Source of the DNA: an uncultured Candidatus Saccharibacteria bacterium
Lineage (GTDB): Bacteria; Patescibacteriota; Minisyncoccia; Phycocordibacterales; UBA5272
Direction of reading: 5' to 3'
DNA length: 42,783 nucleotides
Assembly (NCBI GenBank): GCA_964470485.1
Contig: CAYYCT010000002.1
Coordinates: forward strand, 1-42,783
Shown here: one piece after another, positions 4,449 through 35,045 of the stretch
Numbering within the stretch: position 1 is the first letter of the stretch
How the letters are laid out: every line of letters starts with the position of its first letter
Program-made: the position numbers and the translations under genes
Notes under the pieces: generated by a model
Told to the model about the DNA's origin: nothing
Database searches by the model: none
Seen by the model: only the letters and a program-made list of their open reading frames with translations

Positions 4449-5669
4449 ATGATAATCAAAGATCTCTTCGAAGAAACGTTTATATCCATCAAGTCTAACC
4501 AAGTACGTACTGGTCTTACTGTGCTTGGTATTGTTATTGGTATTGCATCCGTGATTGTCATGCTTGCTATTGGTAATGGTGCACAAAGTTCTATTTCGTC
4601 CAGTATCAGCTCACTCGGTTCAAATATTTTAACAATAAGTGGTGGAGGGGGGAACAGAACAGGAGGAATTAGTGCTGGGAGGTCTAATCAACAGACACTT
4701 ACCTATGATGATGTAAAAGCAATTCAGGAAAAAGTATCTCTCGCAAAAGAAGTTTCTCCGGAGCTTAATTCGCGCTCACAGATAATAGCTGGATCGAACA
4801 ACACCAACACTTCAATTGTCGGTACGGTTCCTGAGTATGAGGCAGCCCACTCAATCATTGTGGAGGACGGTATTTTTTTTACCGATGCACACTACAGAAG
4901 TGCGGCCAGAGTTGCTGTCCTTGGCCCAACAACGCGAGATGATTTATTCGGAGTAGGATCTGATCCTCTTGGGCAAGAGATACGTATTGGTGGTGCGCGC
5001 TTTACAGTTATTGGAGTCACGAAATCAAAAGGAGGAAGTGGTTTTGGTAATCAAGATGATAGAATTTTTATTCCTATTACCACTGCGCAGCGATATATTT
5101 CTGGTGGAGATTATGTGAGCAGTATTGCTGTGACAACCGAAAATCAAGTCGACCTTGCTGAGCTACAGACACAAATAACCGACCTGCTACTTGATCGACA
5201 TCATAAGGCATCACTTGCCGAGGCTGACTTTAGTATTTTTAATCAAGCAGATCTTGCAAATACCGCACAATCTGTTACCCAGATTTTTACTATTTTGCTT
5301 TCATCGGTTGCTTCTATTTCTCTTCTAGTTGGCGGAATTGGTATTATGAATATGATGCTTACTAATGTACGAGAAAGAACCCGTGAGATTGGTCTTCGTA
5401 AAGCAATCGGCGCAAAGAAACGTGATATAAGTAATCAGTTTCTTATAGAATCTATTGTTATAACAATCCTCGGAGGTATCATTGGTGTAATACTTGGATT
5501 TGTTGTGGCATACGGCATTTCTTTACTTGGCATCCTTCAGGCGCAAGTAACACTTAATCCAGTCGTACTAGCGTTTAGTGTTTCTGCTTTCATTGGTATT
5601 ATCTTCGGATATTATCCTGCAAAAAAAGCTTCAGAATTAAATCCAATAGAAGCACTTAGGTATGAGTAA
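4449..5669 (+). CDS. ABC transporter permease, MacB/FtsX family
   Basis: Topology is an N-terminal TM helix, a large periplasmic MacB_PCD-like domain and a C-terminal FtsX 3-TM bundle (RTREIGLRKAIGAKKRDI). ATG 4449 follows the ATPase stop; the track ORF start at 4323 lies inside the ATPase gene. Confidence 0.9.
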   Translation: MIIKDLFEETFISIKSNQVRTGLTVLGIVIGIASVIVMLAIGNGAQSSISSSISSLGSNILTISGGGGNRTGGISAGRSNQQTLTYDDVKAIQEKVSLAKEVSPELNSRSQIIAGSNNTNTSIVGTVPEYEAAHSIIVEDGIFFTDAHYRSAARVAVLGPTTRDDLFGVGSDPLGQEIRIGGARFTVIGVTKSKGGSGFGNQDDRIFIPITTAQRYISGGDYVSSIAVTTENQVDLAELQTQITDLLLDRHHKASLAEADFSIFNQADLANTAQSVTQIFTILLSSVASISLLVGGIGIMNMMLTNVRERTREIGLRKAIGAKKRDISNQFLIESIVITILGGIIGVILGFVVAYGISLLGILQAQVTLNPVVLAFSVSAFIGIIFGYYPAKKASELNPIEALRYE

Positions 5670-5762
5670 AATTTACACTTTATTTTTATAAAAGAGAGGT
5701 ATACTATAATAGGTAGGTTTTGATAAATGTTTGTTCACCACAAGTACCAGGAGGTAACAGTC

Positions 5763-5921
5763 ATGTTCTTTCTTTTTGATCCAAAGGTGATGGCAGGAGA
5801 GCGTGACCCTGCTGTCTACAGCGTTCTCTTCATCATGCCAATGGCATTGTTTGGAGCATTTCTCGCGCCACTCTTTTTCATACCAGAATTTCCTCCAGTA
5901 ACCAAAACGGATAAGAAATGA
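5763..5921 (+). CDS. small (52 aa) predicted single-pass membrane protein
   Basis: A perfect AGGAGG (5749-5754) sits 8 nt upstream of ATG 5763. There is a hydrophobic core (VYSVLFIMPMALFGAFLAPLFFI), and a strong hairpin terminator follows. Confidence 0.5.
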   Translation: MFFLFDPKVMAGERDPAVYSVLFIMPMALFGAFLAPLFFIPEFPPVTKTDKK

Positions 5922-5946
5922 TGGTGATTTATAGTAGAAAAGAGAT

Positions 5947-5987
5947 ACCGGCACATTCGTTAGAATAACGACGTGCCGGTTTCTTGT
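5947..5987 (+). terminator. intrinsic terminator hairpin
   Basis: ACCGGCAC ... GUGCCGGU with an inner CGUUA/UAACG stem, followed by UUUCUUGU. Confidence 0.6.
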
Positions 5988-6024
5988 CCAAAAATTCTTT
6001 TGAAGTGTGGTAATCTAGAATGAT

Positions 6025-6564
6025 ATGATGAAAAAAATACTTCTTGCAGGCGGATGTTTTTGGTGTGTTGAACATGATGTACGTAAGGCTCGCGGAGTAC
6101 TTTCGGTTACTTCTGGTTATAGTGGAGGAGATAGCACAAATCCAACATACGAGCAGCATTCTGGACATAGAGAAGTTGTTGAGGTCTTATATGATGATAC
6201 AAAAACATCATATAAGAAACTTTTACAATTTTTTATCGATCATATTGATCCAACTGACAATGGTGGGCAATTTGGTGATAGAGGAGAAAGTTACAAGACA
6301 GCCATTTTTTATGAAAATGATGTAGAAAAAGAAATTGCCAAACAAGTCCTAGAAGAACTTAATGAAAGTCATATCTATTCTGTGCCAGCACAAGTAGAGA
6401 TGCTTCCGCAAAAACCTTTTTATAAAGCAGAAGAGTATCATCAGGCATATTCTGAGAAGAACCCAACACACTACAATCTTTATCGTGTAGGTTCTGGTCG
6501 AGAGGGATTTGTAAACAGGACATGTCAGATACGAGAAGAAAAGAAGATTGAGTGGAAGGAATGA
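6025..6564 (+). CDS. msrA: peptide-methionine (S)-S-oxide reductase
   Basis: Contains the GGCFWCVE active-site motif and has typical MsrA length and sequence. Confidence 0.9.
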   Translation: MMKKILLAGGCFWCVEHDVRKARGVLSVTSGYSGGDSTNPTYEQHSGHREVVEVLYDDTKTSYKKLLQFFIDHIDPTDNGGQFGDRGESYKTAIFYENDVEKEIAKQVLEELNESHIYSVPAQVEMLPQKPFYKAEEYHQAYSEKNPTHYNLYRVGSGREGFVNRTCQIREEKKIEWKE

Positions 6565-6598
6565 GGAGATTTTATACTTTGTACTAGGGCATGTTCAT

Positions 6599-6621
6599 GC
6601 GCGACGCCGTAGGCGTCGCGC
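6599..6621. terminator. GC-rich perfect hairpin downstream of msrA
   Basis: GCGCGACGCC-GUA-GGCGUCGCGC forms a stem of about 10 bp. No clear U-tract follows, so its function as a terminator is uncertain. Confidence 0.4.
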
Positions 6622-6664
6622 AATGCTATACTAGTGGAAATATATTAATCACAAAGAAGATTTT

Positions 6665-7210
6665 ATGCGTATTGCTGTTATTGGCCCACAAAACACTGGG
6701 AAATCTACCTTCATTCAAGATTTTCTTCAAGAATTTCCCCATTATAAAACTCCAGTAGAAACATATCGAGATATTATAGAAACGAAAGGTCTTGTCGTTA
6801 ATCAGAAAACATCACTTGAAAGTCAAAAAGAAATACGTGATTTTATGTTTGGGCAGATGCGACACAATAAGGAGTATAATATTATTTTTGATCGCTCTAT
6901 GATCGATAACTATGTGTATACATATGCACAATATGAGAAAGGAGATATTCCAAAATGGTTTGTTGATGAGACCGAAGCAATGATGAGAGACACGCTTTCA
7001 GCGGTAGATATGTATTTTTTTATTCCAACGGCAGTTTCAGTACCGCTTGTTGATGATAAGACTCGGGATATTACAGCCCCATATATTGATACAATTAACC
7101 ATATTTTTTTAAGAACGCTTTTTGATCTTTCTCGAACATTTCATTGTACTGTTAAAATAATATCAGGTTCACGGAGTGAAAGAATTAATCAAGTAAAAAA
7201 ATTACTATAA
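6665..7210 (+). CDS. P-loop NTPase (AAA_28/NadR-kinase-like)
   Basis: Walker A GPQNTGKST is at the N-terminus; the protein is 181 aa. Substrate is unknown. Confidence 0.65.
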   Translation: MRIAVIGPQNTGKSTFIQDFLQEFPHYKTPVETYRDIIETKGLVVNQKTSLESQKEIRDFMFGQMRHNKEYNIIFDRSMIDNYVYTYAQYEKGDIPKWFVDETEAMMRDTLSAVDMYFFIPTAVSVPLVDDKTRDITAPYIDTINHIFLRTLFDLSRTFHCTVKIISGSRSERINQVKKLL

Positions 7211-7222
7211 AATAATTTAGGT

Positions 7223-7825
7223 ATGAAGTACGTTATTGGTATTGACGAAGTTGGTCGCGGTCCAATAGCTGGGCCTCTTGTTGTGTGCGCTTGTGCAGTA
7301 CAGGCTGGGGTTGATATCATAGCTTTTTTCCCAAAAAGGGAACTGAAAGACAGTAAAAAATTATCTGAAAAAGCAAGAATAACCATGGTCGAGAAGCTTC
7401 TTCCATTCGTCGAGAATTCTCAAATTTTTTTTGGTATAGGTGAAGTTCCTGCCGAGAAAATAGATACAATTGGATTAGTATCTTCAATTAAAGAAGCTAC
7501 ACAACAAGCCCTCAAGAAAGTCCACGAGCAAGGAGTAGAAAAGGAGAGTTTTATTTTTCTCGATGGGGCACTTAGGGTCGATGAACTATATAATCAAGAA
7601 ACAATTATCAAGGGAGATGAAACAGTTCCTGAAATTGCGCTTGCCTCTATACTTGCTAAAACCCACCGTGATACTTTTATGAAAAAGATCGCGGGGGCAT
7701 ATCCAGGCTATGGTTTTGAAAATCATGTTGGGTATGGAACAAAGGCTCACTATGAGGCAATTAAGCAACGCGGACTTACACCACTTCACCGTAGATCCTT
7801 TCTCAAGGGATTGGGCATACAGTAG
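7223..7825 (+). CDS. rnhB: ribonuclease HII
   Basis: The GIDEVGRGPIAGPLVV catalytic motif is present and the length (200 aa) is typical. Confidence 0.9.
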   Translation: MKYVIGIDEVGRGPIAGPLVVCACAVQAGVDIIAFFPKRELKDSKKLSEKARITMVEKLLPFVENSQIFFGIGEVPAEKIDTIGLVSSIKEATQQALKKVHEQGVEKESFIFLDGALRVDELYNQETIIKGDETVPEIALASILAKTHRDTFMKKIAGAYPGYGFENHVGYGTKAHYEAIKQRGLTPLHRRSFLKGLGIQ

Positions 7826-8613: not shown

Positions 8614-9087
8614 TTATCCCTGCTCTTTTAAATCCTCATCGGTTTCCCCACTAATTTCTTCAACGTCCTTTTGAATTTCCTCAATATCTTCCTGAATTTC
8701 TTCATGCGCCTCTTGGATGTCTTCCACATCCTCCTGAATTTCATCAACGTCCTTTTGAATTTCCTCAATATCTTCCTGAATTTCTTCATGCGCCTCTTGG
8801 ATGTCTTCCACATCTTCAGCGATTTCATCAATGTCTTTTTCAACACCAGCAATAACTTGCGCCTGGTGATTTACACTCATTTGAATAAAAATTGATAGAT
8901 AAATTGCCTCAAGAGATACAATTGTTGTCAACACCAAAAGGACACGATCAAGATCCTGCCCAAGAAGCACAAGAGCAAAAGCTCCTCCAAAAAGGATGGT
9001 ATGGATAATAACTGACCAAATAGACCCAATTCCTCGAGTTACGTGAAGAGCTATAGATTCCAGGCGATTTATAGGGGAATTACTCAT
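8614..9087 (-). CDS. DUF1003-like 2-TM membrane protein with an acidic repeat tail
   Basis: The N-terminal half has two TM helices. The C-terminal half is a 28-aa E/D/I/Q repeat present twice. Confidence 0.7.
   Translation of the reverse strand: MSNSPINRLESIALHVTRGIGSIWSVIIHTILFGGAFALVLLGQDLDRVLLVLTTIVSLEAIYLSIFIQMSVNHQAQVIAGVEKDIDEIAEDVEDIQEAHEEIQEDIEEIQKDVDEIQEDVEDIQEAHEEIQEDIEEIQKDVEEISGETDEDLKEQG
8653..8820. repeat. in-frame tandem repeat, 2 x 84 bp
   Basis: 8661-8730 is identical to 8745-8814 (70/70 nt by direct comparison). The period of 84 nt equals 28 codons. Confidence 0.9.
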
Positions 9088-10273: not shown

Positions 10274-10393
10274 TCTAAAAAGTAGTTCATATAACCCTTA
10301 CATAAAGTAGGAAAAAAGGCGGTACTATAGGCACTGTCTTTTTTCTTTTGTATTTTGAGAGCATACGATAATCTGTTAGTATTGATAGTATCT

Positions 10394-13255
10394 ATGGCAA
10401 GCTATAATCATAATGATATTGAAAAGAAGTGGCAGAAAAAATGGGAGGATGAAAAGCTCTATGCTACGAATACAAAGAGTGATAAAAAGAAATGGTTTGG
10501 CCTTGTGGAGTTTCCATACCCCTCCGGGGCGGGACTTCATGTTGGGCATGTACGTAGCTATACTGGAATGGATATCATTGCTCGCAAGCGACGAATGGGA
10601 GGTAATGAGGTTCTTTTCCCAATAGGATGGGATGCGTTTGGTCTTCCAGCTGAGAACTACGCGATCAAGACAGGTATACATCCAAGCATTACCACAAGAG
10701 AAAATATTGATACATTTCGTCGCCAACTAAAAGCCTGTGGTTTTTCCTTTGATTGGGATCGTGAAGTTGATACTACCGACCCCCAGTACTACAAATGGAC
10801 CCAGTGGATTTTCCTGCAGTTATATAGTAAGGGGTTGGCATATAAAAAAGAGATGCCTGTTAATTGGTGTCCAAAAGATAAGTGTGTGCTTGCTAATGAA
10901 GAAGTACTTGATGGGGCGTGTGAACGATGTGGTACGGCAGTACAGAAGAAGAATAAAGAGCAATGGATGCTCGGTATTACAAAATATGCAGAGCGACTCG
11001 ACAACGATCTTGATGATACTATTTTTTTGGATAAAATAAAAATTCAGCAAAGAAACTGGATTGGTATGTCAGAGGGGAGTGAAATAGATTTTAGACTGAA
11101 GACTACAGATAAAAAATTCGAGTCAACTTTTACGATTTTTACTACTCGCGCAGATACTCTTTTTGGTTGCACCTACTGTGTATTTGCACCAGAACATGCA
11201 CTTGTGGAGGATCTTTTAAAAAATGGGAATATTAAAAATAATGATGAGGTCAGGGTGTATAAGGAAAATGCAAGATTAAAAACTGATATCGACCGCTCTG
11301 CAGAAGGGAAGGAAAAGACTGGAGTTAAGTTAGAGGGGGTTGTTGCAGTTAATCCTGCAAACAATGAAGAAGTGCCCGTGTTTATCGCTGACTATGTATT
11401 GCCTGGATATGGAACTGGTGCGATTATGGCAGTGCCTGCTCACGATGAACGCGATTTTGAGTTCGCGAAGGCGTATAACATATCAGTTAAGGAAGTAATT
11501 TCACCTGAGACTGGTATACCTCAAGAAAATCCCGAGTTTAGAAAAAGTATTGTTGCGGTAGTTTGGAATAAAAAAAATAATACGTTCCTTAGTATTAATT
11601 GGGGGAAGACTATGGGGGGAAATCTTTTTGTTGGTGGCGGAGTAGAAGGGGACGAGGACATTATTGAATGTGCAAAACGAGAAGTTGAAGAAGAGACTGG
11701 CTATAAAAATGTCTCTTTCCTTGCAAAAACTATTCCAATTCATCATAGCTATTTTGCTCATTCTAAAAACATTGCTCGAAGAATCGAAGCAACAGGAGTT
11801 CTCTTTGAATTACTCGATGATGAAAAAGGAGAAGTTTCATTAGAGGAAAATGAGAAGAATAAATTTACAACGATGTGGCTTTCAGAAAAAGATGTGCTCA
11901 CTCTAGTCGTGGATCAGCTTCATAGTTTTGTATTTAAAAATGTAGTAAAACATGAGTTATATGCAGATGACGGCACTCTCATTAACTCAGATTTTTTCAA
12001 TGGGCTTACAAGCGCTGCCGCCCGTATCAAGATAACCGAAGCCGTTGGGGGAAGAATAGTAAAAAAGTCCAAGATGCGGGACTGGGTATTTGCACGTCAA
12101 AGGTATTGGGGTGAACCAATCCCACTTGTGTATGATAAGGACGGCACAATGTATCCCGTACACGAGAGTAATCTTCCAATTACACTTCCACAAGTTGATA
12201 AATATGAACCAACAGACAATGGGGAGTCGCCACTGTATCAGGTGCCAGAGTGGGTGCATGTAAAGGGGTACGTTGATGAAGACGGGTTTTTTCATGCCGA
12301 CACAACAAAAGAAGAAGTTTTTCGTCGTGAGACTGATACTATGCCACAATGGGCGGGGAGTTCATGGTATTTCATGCGTTATATTGATCCAAAAAACAAT
12401 GATGCGTTAGGTGAAAAAGAAATGATTTCAAAGTGGCTTCCGGTGGATTGGTATAACGGGGGAATGGAACATACCACTCTTCACCTGCTTTACTCTCGTT
12501 TTTGGTACAAATTTCTTTTTGATATAGGTCTTGTAAAAACGAGTGAGCCATATTATAAGCGCACATCACAGGGTATGATTCTTGGAGATGGTGGGGTAAA
12601 AATGAGTAAGTCACTCGGGAATGTAGTTAATCCAGATGACATTATTAAAGAGTATGGGGCAGATACACTTCGTTTATATGAAATGTTTATTGGCCCCTTT
12701 GATCAAGCTGTTGTATGGAATTCCAAAGCCGTTTCCGGAGTGCGTCGCTTTCTGGATAAAGTCTACAGCTTTAAGGAAAGAGTGGTAGATTCTACTACAA
12801 CAATCCACGCGACTCATCAACTGATCAAGAAAGTAACCGAGGATATTGAGACTATGTCATTTAATACATGTATTTCTCAAATGATGATATGGTCAAATAC
12901 TATAGAAAAAGAAGAGTCTCTTTCTAAAAAAGATCTCTCTCTTTTCCTTCAGATGCTTGCGCCATTTGCCCCGCATATTGCAGAGGAACTATGGCAAGAA
13001 ATTGGCATGAAAGAATCCGTACATAGTACTCCATGGCCAGAATTTGATCCTTCAATGCTCACGACTTCGGAGGTTACCATGGCATTTCAGGTTTCTGGTA
13101 AACTTCGAGGGACCATAGAAGTATCTCGTGATATGACTGATGAAGAGGTTATGGATATAGTAAAAAAACATGAAATGTACCAAAAATACATTGGAAATCA
13201 AGGGTTTAAGAAGGTTATTATTGTCAAAAATAAGATAGTCAATATCGTAATTTGA
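10394..13255 (+). CDS. leuS: leucine--tRNA ligase carrying an inserted Nudix domain
   Basis: HIGH motif (HVGH), KMSKS motif (VKMSKSLGN), CP1 editing-domain motifs (TTRADTLFG, GTGAIMAVPAHDERDFEFA) and RDWVFARQRYWGEPIP are all present. ATG 10394 is preferred over the upstream alternative start at 10355. Confidence 0.95.
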   Translation: MASYNHNDIEKKWQKKWEDEKLYATNTKSDKKKWFGLVEFPYPSGAGLHVGHVRSYTGMDIIARKRRMGGNEVLFPIGWDAFGLPAENYAIKTGIHPSITTRENIDTFRRQLKACGFSFDWDREVDTTDPQYYKWTQWIFLQLYSKGLAYKKEMPVNWCPKDKCVLANEEVLDGACERCGTAVQKKNKEQWMLGITKYAERLDNDLDDTIFLDKIKIQQRNWIGMSEGSEIDFRLKTTDKKFESTFTIFTTRADTLFGCTYCVFAPEHALVEDLLKNGNIKNNDEVRVYKENARLKTDIDRSAEGKEKTGVKLEGVVAVNPANNEEVPVFIADYVLPGYGTGAIMAVPAHDERDFEFAKAYNISVKEVISPETGIPQENPEFRKSIVAVVWNKKNNTFLSINWGKTMGGNLFVGGGVEGDEDIIECAKREVEEETGYKNVSFLAKTIPIHHSYFAHSKNIARRIEATGVLFELLDDEKGEVSLEENEKNKFTTMWLSEKDVLTLVVDQLHSFVFKNVVKHELYADDGTLINSDFFNGLTSAAARIKITEAVGGRIVKKSKMRDWVFARQRYWGEPIPLVYDKDGTMYPVHESNLPITLPQVDKYEPTDNGESPLYQVPEWVHVKGYVDEDGFFHADTTKEEVFRRETDTMPQWAGSSWYFMRYIDPKNNDALGEKEMISKWLPVDWYNGGMEHTTLHLLYSRFWYKFLFDIGLVKTSEPYYKRTSQGMILGDGGVKMSKSLGNVVNPDDIIKEYGADTLRLYEMFIGPFDQAVVWNSKAVSGVRRFLDKVYSFKERVVDSTTTIHATHQLIKKVTEDIETMSFNTCISQMMIWSNTIEKEESLSKKDLSLFLQMLAPFAPHIAEELWQEIGMKESVHSTPWPEFDPSMLTTSEVTMAFQVSGKLRGTIEVSRDMTDEEVMDIVKKHEMYQKYIGNQGFKKVIIVKNKIVNIVI
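11510..11971 (+). other. Nudix hydrolase domain inserted within LeuRS (ORF residues ~386-539)
   Basis: A Nudix box matching GX5EX7REUXEEXGU exactly, GGVEGDEDIIECAKREVEEETGY, lies at nt 11636-11704. The flanks are canonical LeuRS sequence. Confidence 0.8.
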
Positions 13256-14462: not shown

Positions 14463-15989
14463 ATGCAATTTCTTATTGATATAGGGCTTTCAACACTATA
14501 TTTCTGTATCTTTCTTCTTTTATGTGCGTGGTCATGGCGCTTTTGGGTGATGTATGTGCAACAGAAAGCGTTTGCTAAAATTAATTGGGTAATGCTTGAA
14601 ATTAAACTTCCGCGCGAAATTAATAAATCTCCACTCGCGAGTGAAATGGCAATAGCAAGCTTGTTAATTAATAGCGGAGTTAGTACTAAGTATGATAGAT
14701 TTTTTAAAGGAAATCTTCCAATATATTCATCTTTAGAAATAGCTTCTATAGAAGGGGTGATACATTTTTATGTTCGTATCCAAAGAAGATTTAGACCACT
14801 CGTTGAATCTAATTTTTATGCACAATATCCAGGAATTGAAATTGTTGAAGCAGATGATTATACACGAGCTATTCGATTCCACCATCTTTCTAAAGAAGTA
14901 AATACGTGGGGGGTAACGTATAAGACAAGCAAAACCTGGAAGCCAATAAATCCAGAAACAGGCAAGGCTTATTCTAAATCTGGGAATGGTATTCCAAAAG
15001 ACGATGAAGACAACTATAGCATGAGCGCAGATTTTTTCCCCATTAAAACGTATGTTGATTATGGACTAGATAAAGACCCTAAAGAGGAGTTTAAAGTAGA
15101 CCCACTTTCACCACTTCTTGAAATAATGGGGAGTATTGGGAAGGGTGAGCATATGTGGTATCAAATACTTATTCAAGATGAAGGGCATTATAATGGAAGA
15201 AAAATGCCAAAGTTTTATATTAATGAGAAAACTCATAAGCATATGAGTCTCGCTGAAATGGTTGCACAATATAAGAAACAATTACGAACAAGTCATCATG
15301 TTATCAAAGGTGATAAATCGGTTAATGAATTCGGGGTTACCCTTAAGATAGATGGCCCACCTGATGCTGACGGTAAACCAACAAAAGTTGATGCAAGATA
15401 TCTTGAAACAAAACCTGTTAGTAAAAAAGAAATGGATCTTACCATGGAGGAAAAAGATGAAATAGAAAGTGTTAATGCCAAACTCTCTAAGCAGTTGGCG
15501 CTTTGTGTTATGAGATTAATGTATGTTACGAAAAAAGAAAACTTTGACGCACAACAAATTCCAAACACTATTTCTGTCTGTAGATTATTCAAAGGACAAA
15601 ATTCATTTATTCCAAAATTCACTACTGATCCATATGAATATCCGTGGCAAGATGTTGGTAAAAAACATTCATACTGGCGTGCAGAAGAAATGTTTGAGGC
15701 ATATGTAGAGCGTGAAGGCTTTTTCACTCATTCAGAAAGCAGGGAATCACTTGAGAGGTGGGAAGATTTATTTTTCTGGGCATCTAGTATGAAGCAACGA
15801 AAACTTTTTAGAATGATGTATGAAAATATTTTTTATCCGTTTAGTCACCCACAGTCAAAAGAAGCCTTTACCTTGAATCTGGAGGAAGTCGCGACATTAT
15901 GGCACCTCCCAGGGGCAACAGCAACAACTCCGTCACTGCCTCGTATTGATAGCAATAAGGGAGTTGCCCCATCTAATCTTCCAATATAA
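14463..15989 (+). CDS. hypothetical membrane-anchored protein (508 aa)
   Basis: Long ORF with an N-terminal TM pair. No catalytic motif is recognisable to me. Confidence 0.6.
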   Translation: MQFLIDIGLSTLYFCIFLLLCAWSWRFWVMYVQQKAFAKINWVMLEIKLPREINKSPLASEMAIASLLINSGVSTKYDRFFKGNLPIYSSLEIASIEGVIHFYVRIQRRFRPLVESNFYAQYPGIEIVEADDYTRAIRFHHLSKEVNTWGVTYKTSKTWKPINPETGKAYSKSGNGIPKDDEDNYSMSADFFPIKTYVDYGLDKDPKEEFKVDPLSPLLEIMGSIGKGEHMWYQILIQDEGHYNGRKMPKFYINEKTHKHMSLAEMVAQYKKQLRTSHHVIKGDKSVNEFGVTLKIDGPPDADGKPTKVDARYLETKPVSKKEMDLTMEEKDEIESVNAKLSKQLALCVMRLMYVTKKENFDAQQIPNTISVCRLFKGQNSFIPKFTTDPYEYPWQDVGKKHSYWRAEEMFEAYVEREGFFTHSESRESLERWEDLFFWASSMKQRKLFRMMYENIFYPFSHPQSKEAFTLNLEEVATLWHLPGATATTPSLPRIDSNKGVAPSNLPI

Positions 15990-31270: not shown

Positions 31271-31648
31271 ATAGCTTCTTTACACACTAATAATTACCGG
31301 TATAATTACAGGTCTTTTAGCGGTCTTTTGTAGTAAAAATTTGGTAGTTGCCTCTGTTATATCTTGTTTCATTTGATCAAGATTTGTATAGCCTCCACGA
31401 GCAAGAGAGTCATCAATCACTTTTTTTGTAAGGAGTCTTGTTTGATAGAGAAGTTCTTGAGATTCTTTAAGGTATACAAAACCACGAGATATAAGATCTG
31501 GAGATTTTTTAAGTGTATGAGTATGACTATCAATAACTCCTATAACAACAAACATTCCATCTTCTGCGAGTGTTTGACGGTCACGCATGACAACATCCTG
31601 AACTTTTCCAACCGAGGTTCCATCAACGACGATCATTTCGCTTGGGGC
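31271..31648. repeat. identical block 1, copy A (378 bp; partner 33153-33530)
   Basis: Base-by-base comparison at a fixed offset of 1882 found no mismatch. The block covers the C-terminal domain codons, the stop codon and 9 nt downstream. Confidence 0.9.
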
Positions 31649-33154
31649 CTTTTCTTTTAGCGAAGTAATTGTTCTTCCTTCGTTACTAATTTCGATTATC
31701 ATTCCGTTGTCCGGAACAACAATTGACTCATCTCCTAATCCTAATTTTCTTTTTAGGTCAGCATGGACTCGGAGCATATAATGATACCCATGTATTGGGA
31801 TGAAAAATTTAGGACCTATCTTTCTATGAATCCAAAGAAGTTCGTCTGCATGAGCATGACCAGATGAATGAACATCTGATGTTTTATATTCAGCAAGATG
31901 CGCATCTTCTCGAGAAATTTTATCTTTAACCCCCTGAAGAGGACGTCTAATTCCTGGTATTGTGGCGGAAGACATCAAGAATGTATCTCGAGGCGATATT
32001 TTTATATACCTATGTGTATTATTTGCAATACGACCAAGTGCGGCAAATTCTTCTCCTTGTTGGCCCGTAGCCAAGATGATTATTTTATTCTCAGGGTAAT
32101 AGGAAAGATCATTATATGTAATGAGAGTATTTGGTTGTATGGTGAGAAGATTAGCGAGCTTTGCAATTTCCGCATTAAATTGCATACTCTTTCCCTCAAG
32201 AAGAACTTTTTTACCGTGACGTTCTGCGGCTTCTAGAATATGTAGCATCCTCTCTACTTGTGTAGCAAAAGTTACAATAATTAATCTCCCTTCCACTTCC
32301 TTAATTATTTTTTCAATATTACTAGCAACCTCCGTATCATGTAAAGAAAGACCGCTATTTTCTGATCCCGTAGAATCCCCCATAAGAAGAAGAACTTTCC
32401 TATTCTCAAATAATTTATAGCGCTCTTCTTCTTCTTGGGTTGGAATACCATCAACGTGCTCTAAACGAAGATCTCCAGTATGAACAATATCTCCGTGAGG
32501 GGTTTCGATGATGATGCCCATCTCACTCGGAGAAGAATCTTTTATACCAAAAAACCTCACCTTTAAATCTCCGAGTGTAAGAGAATCTCCTTTTTCAATT
32601 ACATTGATAGTAAGAGGGGCTAGATGAGGAAATTCTTCTTGACGCTTTTTAATCATGAGTGATGTAAAAAGACGGGAGTAGATCTGAGGGTTGCCAATAC
32701 GTGGCATGATGTAGGGGATAGAGCCAATGTGATCAAGATGTCCATGAGTAACAAGAACCCCCTTTATCTTGTGCTTATGTTCTTCAAGATAACGAGTGTT
32801 AGGAAGAATGAAATCAATCCCAGGAGTATTAGTTTCTGTAAACTGAACACCACAATCAATGATAAGAATAGTATCTTTATATTCAACCATACTCATATTA
32901 CGTCCAATCTCTTCTACTCCACCAAAGTGAATAATACGAATATCCCCGTCTTTAAGTGGTGGGATGTGGTCTGTCTCACGTTTACCGGTAACAGTTGTAT
33001 CGAATTTTGGGCCGACAGATCCTTGAGGTCTTCGATTAGTATAGGAACTATTTCTCGCTCTAAAGTTTTGTGGTTTTCCATGTCCAAGAGAGCTATTGTG
33101 TGGAGTGTTCGATTGAATGTTTGACATATTCTGAGATGTTATTATTTGATTCAT
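31280..33154 (-). CDS. rnj: ribonuclease J, copy A
   Basis: Contains the metallo-beta-lactamase motif THGHLDH, a beta-CASP region and the RNase J C-terminal domain. ATG 33154 (MNQII...) is preferred over the GTG at 33169, which overlaps copy B. Confidence 0.9.
   Translation of the reverse strand: MNQIITSQNMSNIQSNTPHNSSLGHGKPQNFRARNSSYTNRRPQGSVGPKFDTTVTGKRETDHIPPLKDGDIRIIHFGGVEEIGRNMSMVEYKDTILIIDCGVQFTETNTPGIDFILPNTRYLEEHKHKIKGVLVTHGHLDHIGSIPYIMPRIGNPQIYSRLFTSLMIKKRQEEFPHLAPLTINVIEKGDSLTLGDLKVRFFGIKDSSPSEMGIIIETPHGDIVHTGDLRLEHVDGIPTQEEEERYKLFENRKVLLLMGDSTGSENSGLSLHDTEVASNIEKIIKEVEGRLIIVTFATQVERMLHILEAAERHGKKVLLEGKSMQFNAEIAKLANLLTIQPNTLITYNDLSYYPENKIIILATGQQGEEFAALGRIANNTHRYIKISPRDTFLMSSATIPGIRRPLQGVKDKISREDAHLAEYKTSDVHSSGHAHADELLWIHRKIGPKFFIPIHGYHYMLRVHADLKRKLGLGDESIVVPDNGMIIEISNEGRTITSLKEKAPSEMIVVDGTSVGKVQDVVMRDRQTLAEDGMFVVIGVIDSHTHTLKKSPDLISRGFVYLKESQELLYQTRLLTKKVIDDSLARGGYTNLDQMKQDITEATTKFLLQKTAKRPVIIPVIISV
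32370..33016. repeat. identical block 2, copy A (647 bp; partner 34252-34898)
   Basis: Block ends located base by base at the same 1882-nt offset; interior identity rests on the identical translated protein over this stretch (and identical antisense track ORFs). It covers the N-terminal MBL domain codons. Confidence 0.9.
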
Positions 33155-33530
33155 AGCTTCTTTACACACTAATAATTACCGGTATAATTACAGGTCTTTT
33201 AGCGGTCTTTTGTAGTAAAAATTTGGTAGTTGCCTCTGTTATATCTTGTTTCATTTGATCAAGATTTGTATAGCCTCCACGAGCAAGAGAGTCATCAATC
33301 ACTTTTTTTGTAAGGAGTCTTGTTTGATAGAGAAGTTCTTGAGATTCTTTAAGGTATACAAAACCACGAGATATAAGATCTGGAGATTTTTTAAGTGTAT
33401 GAGTATGACTATCAATAACTCCTATAACAACAAACATTCCATCTTCTGCGAGTGTTTGACGGTCACGCATGACAACATCCTGAACTTTTCCAACCGAGGT
33501 TCCATCAACGACGATCATTTCGCTTGGGGC
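33153..33530. repeat. identical block 1, copy B
   Basis: Partner of 31271-31648. Confidence 0.9.
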
Positions 33531-35045
33531 ACGCTCCTTTAAGTTTGTAATTCGGTTTCCGCTATCTGTGATTTCAATTATCATTCCATTGTCTGGGATC
33601 ATAATGTGATCTTTTGGAGTCCCAAGTTTACGTTCAAGTTCGCCGTGAATTCTAAGCATGTAATGGTAACCATGAACGGGGATAAAAAATTTCGGGTGAA
33701 TTTTTTTATGAATCCAAAGAAGTTCGTCTGCATTAGCATGACCAGAAGAGTGAACATCAGAAGTTCGGTAGTGTATAAGATGTGCCCCTTGCCTAGAAAG
33801 TTTATCTTTTAGGTTTTGTACAGCATTATCATTTCCAGGAACAACCGATGATGACATAAGAATGGTGTCTCGTGGAGTAAGACGGATAAATTTATGTGTT
33901 TTATTTGCAATACGACCAAGTGCGGCAAATTCTTCTCCTTGTTGGCCCGTAGCCAAGATGATTATTTTATTCTCAGGGTAATGATTCATTTCTTCTAAGC
34001 TTATAAGGGTTTCTGGGCGAATTTTAAGCATATTAGCAAGCTTAGTTATCTCAACATTTGTTTTCATGCTTCTTCCTTCTATCACAACTTTTTTACCGTA
34101 ACGCTCAGCTGTTTCAAGCATAAAAAGCATTCTTTCTACCTGAGAGGCAAACGTGCTTATAATAAGTCTTCCTGATGTTTCGCGTATAATGGTTTCAATG
34201 TTTTTGTATACAATACTATCAGAAATTGAAAAACCAGGATTGTCGCAATTAGTAGAATCCCCCATAAGAAGAAGAACTTTCCTATTCTCAAATAATTTAT
34301 AGCGCTCTTCTTCTTCTTGGGTTGGAATACCATCAACGTGCTCTAAACGAAGATCTCCAGTATGAACAATATCTCCGTGAGGGGTTTCGATGATGATGCC
34401 CATCTCACTCGGAGAAGAATCTTTTATACCAAAAAACCTCACCTTTAAATCTCCGAGTGTAAGAGAATCTCCTTTTTCAATTACATTGATAGTAAGAGGG
34501 GCTAGATGAGGAAATTCTTCTTGACGCTTTTTAATCATGAGTGATGTAAAAAGACGGGAGTAGATCTGAGGGTTGCCAATACGTGGCATGATGTAGGGGA
34601 TAGAGCCAATGTGATCAAGATGTCCATGAGTAACAAGAACCCCCTTTATCTTGTGCTTATGTTCTTCAAGATAACGAGTGTTAGGAAGAATGAAATCAAT
34701 CCCAGGAGTATTAGTTTCTGTAAACTGAACACCACAATCAATGATAAGAATAGTATCTTTATATTCAACCATACTCATATTACGTCCAATCTCTTCTACT
34801 CCACCAAAGTGAATAATACGAATATCCCCGTCTTTAAGTGGTGGGATGTGGTCTGTCTCACGTTTACCGGTAACAGTTGTATCGAATTTTGGGCCGACCA
34901 TCGACCGAGGTGGACGAGTATTTCTTGCTCTTGAGGGGGTGTTTTTAGATCCGTAAGATTTGCTATGTGATGGTGGGGTAGATGGAGCAGGTTGAGAACT
35001 ACTGGTATCGGGAAGCTTTTGAATTATATTTGGCGAAGTATTCAT
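33162..35045 (-). CDS. rnj: ribonuclease J, copy B
   Basis: Same architecture as copy A, with a diverged central third and a different N-terminal tail. Confidence 0.9.
   Translation of the reverse strand: MNTSPNIIQKLPDTSSSQPAPSTPPSHSKSYGSKNTPSRARNTRPPRSMVGPKFDTTVTGKRETDHIPPLKDGDIRIIHFGGVEEIGRNMSMVEYKDTILIIDCGVQFTETNTPGIDFILPNTRYLEEHKHKIKGVLVTHGHLDHIGSIPYIMPRIGNPQIYSRLFTSLMIKKRQEEFPHLAPLTINVIEKGDSLTLGDLKVRFFGIKDSSPSEMGIIIETPHGDIVHTGDLRLEHVDGIPTQEEEERYKLFENRKVLLLMGDSTNCDNPGFSISDSIVYKNIETIIRETSGRLIISTFASQVERMLFMLETAERYGKKVVIEGRSMKTNVEITKLANMLKIRPETLISLEEMNHYPENKIIILATGQQGEEFAALGRIANKTHKFIRLTPRDTILMSSSVVPGNDNAVQNLKDKLSRQGAHLIHYRTSDVHSSGHANADELLWIHKKIHPKFFIPVHGYHYMLRIHGELERKLGTPKDHIMIPDNGMIIEITDSGNRITNLKERAPSEMIVVDGTSVGKVQDVVMRDRQTLAEDGMFVVIGVIDSHTHTLKKSPDLISRGFVYLKESQELLYQTRLLTKKVIDDSLARGGYTNLDQMKQDITEATTKFLLQKTAKRPVIIPVIISV
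34252..34898. repeat. identical block 2, copy B
   Basis: Partner of 32370-33016. Confidence 0.9.

Follow-up and report, generated by a model that had tools for sequence, protein, structure and literature searches.

Aminoacyl-tRNA synthetases (aaRS) are among the most studied enzymes. The CP1 domain of leucyl-tRNA synthetase (LeuRS) is the textbook inserted editing domain and is a drug target. A survey of inserted domains from 2026 counted 213 events with PF13603, the editing domain of LeuRS; it was the insert in 100% of them and the host in none (PMC13114784). The comprehensive 2017 analysis of the Nudix clan makes no mention of tRNA or synthetases (PMC5389931). Here we analyzed a 42,783-nucleotide stretch of contig CAYYCT010000002.1, referred to as the window, which comes from a Patescibacteria (Paceibacteria-like) bacterium and contains the gene for its housekeeping LeuRS. 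The LeuRS gene (10394..13255, + strand) encodes a bacterial-type protein of 953 residues plus stop. As judged from its sequence and models, it very probably contains an active Nudix enzyme nested within CP1.

The Nudix domain occupies residues 373-526 (11510..11971, +), at a position that we call site B. The alignment to Thermus thermophilus LeuRS (1h3n) halts at Thermus residue 369 (window residue 376) and restarts at Thermus residue 376 (window residue 521). Because of this break, we conclude that approximately 145-154 residues of the insert stand in place of approximately 6 in a surface loop of CP1. The PF13603 match in the window LeuRS is split on either side of the insert. In two homologues with a short loop at site B, P0009 and P0061, the match is unbroken and covers positions 1-183 of the 185 in the profile. 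Since PF13603 flanks the insert on both sides, the insertion site is assigned to CP1, and the split match indicates that the Nudix domain is nested within CP1, which is itself inserted in the Rossmann fold. The N-terminal part of CP1 (residues ~225-372; 11066..11509, +) scores 189 bits with PF13603, its best stretch covering profile positions 1-146 of 185. The C-terminal part (residues 527-~560; 11972..12073, +) starts with GTLINSDFFNGL, aligns from Thermus residue 376, contains an invariant G527 and leads back toward RDW/RQRYWGEPIP.

The Nudix assignment is based on sequence profiles and on structure prediction. The Pfam NUDIX model (PF00293) gives 50.9 bits (E 2e-13) for nucleotides 11510-11971 alone and 45.9 bits when the full protein is scanned, compared to a gathering score of 21.1. 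The Nudix box GX5EX7REUXEEXGU is found as GGVEGDEDIIECAKREVEEETGY at residues 415-437 (11636..11704, +), and fits at every defined position. An AlphaFold2 model of the insert alone, built from 31 diverse inserts, has a predicted local distance difference test (pLDDT) value of ~91 and a predicted template modeling score (pTM) of 0.86. In the model, strands lead into the helix of the box and are followed by further strands and two C-terminal helices. Foldseek returned 487 matches in the Protein Data Bank (PDB) with E<=0.001, and the best 50 of the 487 are all Nudix proteins, consistent with the alpha/beta/alpha fold. The top match is 2azw, with template modeling (TM) scores of 0.73/0.79. Next are RppH, AvrM14, NudI, the human diadenosine tetraphosphate (Ap4A) hydrolase and the Thermus diadenosine hexaphosphate (Ap6A) hydrolase, with TM scores of ~0.55-0.66. 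The nearest neighbors by profile comparison include 2azw (4e-12), the lupin Ap4A hydrolase (3.5e-9), and Dcp2 and AvrM14 (~2e-8). The insert also has weak matches to MutT and NudI.

The residues of the Nudix box are highly conserved. Among 107 insert-bearing LeuRS, G415, E430, E433 and E434 are present in all 107, G436 in 106, E421 in 99 and R429 in 98. Outside the box, an arginine at insert position 14 and K89, R93, E118 and W126 of the insert are also conserved. An aromatic pair is found 16-17 residues past the box (Y/F in 85/107 inserts and F/Y in 97/107). Compared to the insert of L089, a strain 97% identical to the window, that of the window shows 9 synonymous changes and 3 nonsynonymous ones, with a ratio of nonsynonymous to synonymous polymorphism (pN/pS) of 0.087. 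The rest of the LeuRS gene has 73 synonymous and 14 nonsynonymous differences (pN/pS 0.05). These data indicate that the Nudix domain is under purifying selection, with its catalytic residues invariant in more than 100 diverged homologues. A degenerate or non-catalytic Nudix domain was rejected because the box is conserved and pN/pS is 0.087.

The host is a bacterial leucine-tRNA ligase. It scores 939.2 bits with NCBIfam TIGR00396 (leuS_bact), compared to a cutoff of 548.4, and the match is split in two stretches by the insert. Pfam identified the tRNA-synt_1 domain, the PF13603 editing domain, the anticodon-binding domain (PF08264, 80.9 bits; 12803..13138, +) and NUDIX. The class I signatures and the CP1 editing residues, which include the T-rich motif and the conserved aspartate, are in place, and HVGH, KMSKS, TTRxDT and HDxRD are invariant in the family. 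In the synthetic site, H49, G51 and H52 of the HIGH motif (HVGH, residues 49-52; 10538..10549, +) are invariant in 38 aligned homologues. The same is true of K736, S738, K739 and S740 in KMSKS (residues 736-740; 12599..12613, +). In CP1, T250, T251, R252 and T255 of TTRADT (residues 250-255; 11141-11158, +) and H350, D351, R353 and D354 of HDERD (residues 350-354; 11441-11455, +) are likewise invariant. An AlphaFold2 model of the full-length protein, built from the 38-sequence alignment, has a mean pLDDT of 86.9 and a pTM of 0.73, and the blocks covering the insert have values of 85-95. This model superimposes onto E. coli and Thermus LeuRS with TM scores of 0.75/0.82. Foldseek with the full-length model returned LeuRS chains only, and the Nudix domain was therefore modeled separately. 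Because of the fold models, the conserved catalytic residues and the pN/pS values, both the LeuRS and the Nudix modules look functional.

An earlier note on this DNA, made from its sequence alone, had described a complete Nudix domain at 11510-11971 in an otherwise canonical LeuRS. Its coordinates, its motifs and its placement of the box at nucleotides 11636-11704 are right, and its figure of ~154 extra residues is in line with the Thermus alignment. The domain scan and the structure model that it proposed found PF00293 within LeuRS and an intact Nudix fold. It had also argued for a continuous frame and not two adjacent genes, and the open reading frame indeed runs from 10355 to 13255 (+) without interruption, with the true start at ATG 10394. 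The note had placed the insert after CP1 and before the catalytic core. This placement has to be revised, as the split PF13603 match assigns the segment from GTLINSDFFNGL to RDW to CP1 as well.

Several other features of the LeuRS family were observed. At ~12260-12340 (residues ~623-648) of the window LeuRS, KGYVDEDGFFHADTTKEEVF replaces the Cys-containing 'KCPxCxG' knuckle of the family consensus. The protein has no segment aligning to the leucine-specific domain of Thermus LeuRS (Thermus ~595-637 unaligned). Some homologues have insertions at or near the knuckle position (residues ~623-648), the leucine-specific-domain position and the KMSKS-region position.

The nested Nudix domain is neither an assembly product nor peculiar to the window. 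The LeuRS gene and its neighborhood were independently assembled from the sequencing runs SRR12487046 (0 nucleotide differences), SRR33128030 (1 difference) and SRR32540953 (99 differences). A mis-assembly, which the earlier note had raised as a concern, is answered by these three runs, which yield the same gene and neighbors. An assembly chimera or frameshift fusion was rejected because the frame is unbroken and the runs agree. The window LeuRS is identical to the database protein P0001. As relatives we took the best 120 clusters in a collection of 5.8 billion proteins. The ortholog survey that the note had proposed found 150-172 extra residues at exactly the same loop in 107/120 of them. Source names of these relatives include Candidatus Paceibacterota, Minisyncoccia, Parcubacteria and Patescibacteria group. 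A scan of contigs of GTDB species representatives was dominated by the generic HDERDFEF pattern. It retrieved 80 loci, of which 27 were informative. These 27 encode LeuRS with the Nudix insert, all in metagenome-assembled genomes (MAGs) of Patescibacteria type, a few of them bins with evidently automatic labels. The LeuRS of other phyla retrieved in the same scan do not have the insert. The Nudix box of L029, a Gracilibacteria locus, contains two TGA codons in frame; if one of them is read as Gly, which fits genetic code 25, the conserved GG is restored.

The insert varies independently of its host. Among the 107 inserts there are at least 17 types, with less than ~38% identity between types, and the window type (type 5) is the commonest (34/107). 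Over 5,671 pairs, the identities of core and insert are only loosely related (r = 0.22). In the extreme pairs, the cores are 97.2% identical and the inserts 19.9%, or the cores 55% and the inserts 61%. The same behavior is seen in the clade of the window LeuRS. Compared to the window, core and insert identities are 78% and 63% for P0005, 78% and 22% for P0008, and 55% and 61% for P0082; P0009 has 79% core identity and no Nudix domain at site B. In a neighbor-joining tree of 762 core columns, the 13 LeuRS without a site-B Nudix are dispersed among Nudix-bearing clades.

Closely related strains show what differs. P0031, P0020, P0016 and P0044 have near-identical cores and differ only at the insertion sites. 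P0031 contains a Nudix domain and, where CP1 begins, a Ham1-like domain. P0020 contains the same Nudix domain and nothing else inserted. The Nudix domain of P0016 is 38% identical to that of P0031 and P0020. P0044 has a 40-residue non-Nudix loop at the cassette site. Three of the strains behind these proteins come from three different samples, and their loci are fully syntenic with the window. Their DNA is 95-100% identical over ~10 kb, drops to 40-65% only across the site-B cassette and then returns to 95-100%. A smaller divergent patch is found at the start of CP1 in the same comparison. Because near-identical strains hold another Nudix type, or none, at the same codon position, we conclude that the Nudix domain is dispensable for LeuRS as such. 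The sharp boundaries suggest that the cassette was exchanged by homologous recombination through the conserved LeuRS flanks, and divergence in place does not account for the pattern.

These observations do not fit the picture of a fixed fusion in the earlier note; they point to a cassette that varies between strains, recombines and is not required by LeuRS. Vertical co-evolution of the insert and its host was rejected in view of the low correlation, the dispersed absences and the DNA divergence restricted to the cassette. Hypermutation in place, for example by a diversity-generating retroelement, was also rejected because distant LeuRS share cassettes that are closer than their cores, and the insertions and deletions span the whole domain. 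The window LeuRS gene also differs strongly from that of L089 in a hypervariable patch where CP1 begins, 'site A' (residues 229-253; 11078..11152, +), with 25 nucleotide differences in 75 nucleotides and ~3% elsewhere. Site A resembles a second hotspot of recombination or variability in the same gene.

The Nudix domain belongs to a small group of sequences. A search with the insert found 281 matches among 1.84 billion cluster representatives (E <= 0.001). The number of matches is so small that we consider the insert a member of a small, distinct Nudix subfamily. Among the 150 best-matching representative clusters, LeuRS or LeuRS fragments account for about two-thirds. A ProRS (P0227; L088 2906-4837) contains a Nudix domain of this subfamily nested between its anticodon-binding and C-terminal domains. 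We looked up five apparently free-standing homologues, a small hand-picked sample, and 5/5 immediately adjoin aaRS genes. In one locus, TsaD and the Nudix gene are followed after 5 bp by ValRS. In another, the Nudix gene is 3 bp from a bacterial LeuRS without the insert. In a third, an archaeal-type LeuRS is followed after 35 bp by the Nudix gene. ArgRS, 12 bp, the Nudix gene, a small open reading frame and IleRS follow each other in L092. In L086 (1-1218), the Nudix domain is followed by a TGA codon and then by the C-terminal half of MetRS in the same frame.

In this lineage, the sequences examined indicate that the subfamily is almost always physically tied to aaRS, either nested (LeuRS, ProRS, MetRS) or as an adjacent gene. 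The tie appears to go beyond mere tolerance of an insert in one aaRS, because separate homologue genes adjoin several different aaRS. A functional coupling of the subfamily to aaRS is thus somewhat favored. The free-standing homologues were rejected as proof of an unlinked ancestor, because P0131, P0192, P0136 and P0229 are LeuRS fragments and the separate genes adjoin aaRS.

Two of these loci have additional features. The TGA of L086 joins the Nudix domain to the MetRS half at 'IC*PDNLRFQG', and presumably the MetRS motif would be better suited by Trp at this position. In L092, the IleRS (4594-7498; TIGR00392, 800 bits) contains a nested histidine phosphatase (His_Phos_1/cobC-like) at residues ~524-675, and a second Nudix gene adjoins a dUTPase.

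Nudix enzymes clear dinucleoside polyphosphates (ApnN) in many organisms, and RppH also binds Ap4A. It is established that aaRS produce Ap4A and related ApnN from aminoacyl-adenylate and ATP (reviewed in PMC7705103 and PMC10148737). The earlier note had speculated that the domain could hydrolyze Ap4A or adenylates, an idea that may draw indirect support from the association of this Nudix subfamily with several different aaRS and from the weak resemblance to Ap4A hydrolases and RppH. Our best overall explanation is that the nested Nudix domain is an accessory enzyme working with aaRS chemistry, a reading on which we are evenly balanced. It would act beside the synthetase on a nucleotide-polyphosphate compound of aaRS chemistry, and would take no part itself in aminoacylation or editing. 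The leading candidate substrates are dinucleoside polyphosphates such as Ap4A, which would be hydrolyzed at their source. They rank first among the candidates, tentatively and with more doubt than the general reading, because the Ap4A and Ap6A hydrolases and RppH are among the nearest characterized relatives in sequence and fold, and because of the aromatic pair after the box. ApnA hydrolases have a specificity tyrosine in the X-loop past the Nudix box (PMC5389931). The Y/F pair of the insert falls in this region, a placement made by sequence position and not by structural match to Y87 of NUDT2.

Several observations weigh against an Ap4A hydrolase working with aaRS chemistry. The function of 2azw is listed as undetermined (PMC5389931). 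The insert resembles Ap4A hydrolases just slightly more than other Nudix classes. It does not reach the models of the named enzymes either; its best score with the RppH models (NCBIfam PRK00714) is 25.6 bits compared to a cutoff of 116, and with MutT 8-oxo-dGTPase (TIGR00586) it is 21 bits compared to 97.9. Presence or absence at the strain level, together with many deeply diverged types, is unexpected for an Ap4A hydrolase with a simple housekeeping role. Unrelated hydrolases (Ham1, HAD, alpha/beta-hydrolase and ASCH) occur in this LeuRS scaffold too, and the Nudix subfamily itself is also found in an M17 aminopeptidase, which fits the hitch-hiking explanation discussed below as well as a specific coupling. 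Finally, one of the adjoining aaRS is ArgRS, and ArgRS makes little or no Ap4A.

The strongest alternative is that the Nudix domain hitch-hikes on LeuRS. It would be a general sanitizer of the nucleotide pool, similar to MutT or other nucleoside triphosphate pyrophosphatases, with no mechanistic link to LeuRS. Reduced, nucleotide-scavenging genomes would park such hydrolases in loops that tolerate insertion, within essential genes of high expression, and the conserved flanks would serve as landing pads for recombination. The variety of nested domains is consistent with this explanation. At site A, homologues contain Ham1, HAD plus alpha/beta-hydrolase, or ASCH (P0017, P0040, P0052). Elsewhere in the LeuRS family there is an aminoglycoside-NTase-like nucleotidyltransferase before the Nudix domain, a Nudix domain at a post-CP1 site, and two or three Nudix copies. 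The multi-domain homologues (P0017, P0031, P0040, P0042, P0052, P0121, P0126) reach lengths of up to 1380 residues. Other hosts are the IleRS with its histidine phosphatase and the M17 leucyl aminopeptidase (P0218, 1318 residues), in which a Nudix domain of the same subfamily is arranged as GNAT-Nudix-GNAT. The strains without a cassette at the same locus and the weak matches of the insert to MutT and NudI also fit a parked sanitizer, although the score with the MutT equivalog model is far under its cutoff. Pure parking is not expected to produce a small subfamily located overwhelmingly in or beside aaRS, including separate genes next to non-homologous aaRS in all five cases examined. We regard hitch-hiking as rather unlikely.

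Two further alternatives are considerably less probable. The first is an enzyme acting on RNA ends, which like RppH or Dcp2 would remove a 5' polyphosphate or nucleotide cap from RNA held by the synthetase, either a tRNA precursor or another RNA. RppH models give the best named NCBIfam hits, the top neighbors in profile or fold include RppH, Dcp2 and AvrM14, and CP1 receives the acceptor end of tRNA. However, every RppH score is far under its cutoff, including those of the free-standing relatives (<=42 bits compared to 118), and mature tRNA already has a 5' monophosphate after RNase P. The association with ProRS and with aaRS encoded by separate genes needs no RNA substrate, and the cassette can be absent. 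This role is improbable. The insert was also rejected as RppH, MutT, NudE, NudI, YfcD, DHNTPase or ADPRase, since no subfamily cutoff is reached.

The second is an arms race, in which polymorphic cassettes would be under diversifying selection against nucleotide toxins directed at aaRS (antibiotics that mimic adenylates) or against nucleotides derived from phage or host. It would account for the polymorphism in type and presence between strains and the sharp recombination boundaries in otherwise near-identical genomes. It is also in line with the varied hydrolase, transferase and GNAT domains in aaRS, and a curated precedent exists in NF040702 (NCBIfam), an aaRS with an added GNAT domain. On the other side, Nudix enzymes cleave pyrophosphate bonds and not the phosphoramidate or sulfamoyl links of adenylate mimics. 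No toxin partner was found, and the neighborhood is plain housekeeping. PADLOC gave only PDC-S07 at 13.7-24.5 bits, a weak and generic similarity. Membership in a defense system was rejected because of these weak scores and the housekeeping neighbors, and we give the arms race a low probability.

The least probable explanation, a very remote one, is a degenerate structural or binding Nudix domain, an intein-like selfish element or an artefact; the patchy presence at conserved sites of an essential gene recalls the ecology of inteins and introns, but the residues of the catalytic box do not vary and are under purifying selection, intein termini and an endonuclease domain are lacking, and the continuous frame and three agreeing runs refute an artefact. 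The insert boundaries read ...ISPE followed by TGIPQ... and ...YADD followed by GTLIN..., lacking both a C/S/T nucleophile and an HN motif, and NUDIX is the sole Pfam hit on the insert segment. An intein or mobile element was rejected on account of the missing splicing termini and endonuclease, and the housekeeping surroundings.

The preferred reading, an active accessory Nudix enzyme working with aaRS chemistry, can be extended to other genes and domains. In this extension, which we consider possible but doubtful, the class I aaRS genes of Patescibacteria, with LeuRS foremost, would be in-frame platforms for horizontally exchanged, strain-variable nucleotide-hydrolase cassettes. The cassettes (at least 17 Nudix types, Ham1, HAD, ASCH and histidine phosphatase) would form an accessory genome inside essential genes. 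They would be kept by aaRS-linked selection and not by mere tolerance of insertions. This selection might act through the removal of dinucleoside polyphosphates made by aaRS, or through the neutralization of variable toxic nucleotides that are aaRS-directed or scavenged.

The window consists of ordinary chromosomal DNA from a bacterium with a small genome. Its genes encode MsrA, RNase HII, DUF5671, a sigma70_r4/HARE-HTH protein, YceG, RNase T, UvrA, UvrC, class I ribonucleotide reductase, two RNase J and DnaE. No tRNA genes were found in the window, and no mobile-element signatures were seen near the LeuRS gene. The two RNase J genes (31280-33169 and 33162-35045, - strand) are tandem paralogues of 629 and 627 residues, with an overlap of 8 nucleotides and the same domain order. 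A gene at 8614-9087 (- strand) encodes a membrane-anchored protein of 157 residues with a highly acidic coiled-coil repeat, DIDEIAEDVEDIQEAHEEIQEDIEEIQKDV x2, and a DUF948 score under the cutoff. All related loci have this gene in the same syntenic position, upstream of DUF5671 and LeuRS. An open reading frame of 508 residues without a Pfam match (14463-15989, +) is located downstream of the sigma70_r4/HARE-HTH gene and is syntenic in all related strains (504-508 residues). Between L081 and L082/L083 its nucleotide identity is 83-92%, more divergent than the surroundings.

The sequences are public, and the feature itself appears unstudied. Automatic database names exist, such as 'class I tRNA ligase family protein' (NCBI, several) and 'leucyl-tRNA synthetase/8-oxo-dGTP pyrophosphatase MutT (NUDIX family)' (JGI, for P0061). 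No description of a LeuRS-Nudix or aaRS-Nudix architecture was found in the open-access PMC and bioRxiv literature. The earlier note knew of no such description, and this part of its claim stands; the architecture is not a singleton, as it is widespread in Patescibacteria and already carries database names. Judged from their domain matches, the Patescibacteria LeuRS are counter-examples to the statement that PF13603 is never a host (PMC13114784).

The nested domain places a second enzyme inside the LeuRS editing domain, kept across a large bacterial radiation. Since one Nudix subfamily is consistently paired with several unrelated aaRS, the fate of aaRS-made Ap4A and ApnN, a long-standing question, becomes directly testable in organisms in which ApaH or YqeK may be absent. 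The swapping, loss and replacement of catalytic domains in an essential gene, between strains so similar over ~10 kb, is an unusual form of accessory-genome evolution. This turnover bears on 'core gene' phylogenies and on the annotation of MAGs in Patescibacteria.

The window LeuRS can be compared to several known systems. It shares its family, its fold and the HIGH, KMSKS, TTRxDT and HDxRD motifs with the bacterial CP1-containing LeuRS of E. coli (4AQ7/4ARC) and T. thermophilus (1H3N/2BYT). Unlike these solved structures, it holds a catalytic domain of 154 residues in a CP1 loop that has ~6-20 residues there, and compared to Thermus LeuRS it lacks the leucine-specific domain region. With the Nudix ApnA hydrolases and RppH (lupin 1F3Y, human NUDT2 4IJX, Thermus Ndx1 1VC9, E. 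coli RppH 4S2X/7SP3), the insert shares the box and the alpha/beta/alpha fold, with TM scores of 0.58-0.65 for RppH and the human and Thermus hydrolases, and it has a conserved aromatic residue in the loop after the box. It is only 18-23% identical to them, is nested rather than free-standing, and does not reach the RppH cutoff. The MutT/nudix protein of Enterococcus faecalis (2AZW) is its best profile and structural match and aligns over the full length, with 18% identity; 2AZW is free-standing, whereas the insert is nested.

LeuRS-Nudix belongs to a known kind, the aaRS with accessory domains. Extra enzymatic modules are also found in NF040702 ('isoleucine-tRNA ligase, N-acetyltransferase domain-containing') and as cis editing domains such as INS of ProRS, and appended or inserted domains are an established concept for aaRS. 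In contrast to these, the module here is a Nudix domain, is located inside the editing domain, and is strain-variable and exchangeable. This evolutionary behavior is unusual, and may be more noteworthy than the architecture itself. Conserved flanks around a sharply bounded divergent segment are likewise a feature of inteins and of segmentally variable genes and swappable domains, such as the HsdS target-recognition domains of type I restriction-modification systems (for the concept of segmentally variable genes, see PMC387263). In contrast to these systems, the window LeuRS has no splicing or homing machinery, and what varies is an entire catalytic domain, from another superfamily, within a housekeeping enzyme.

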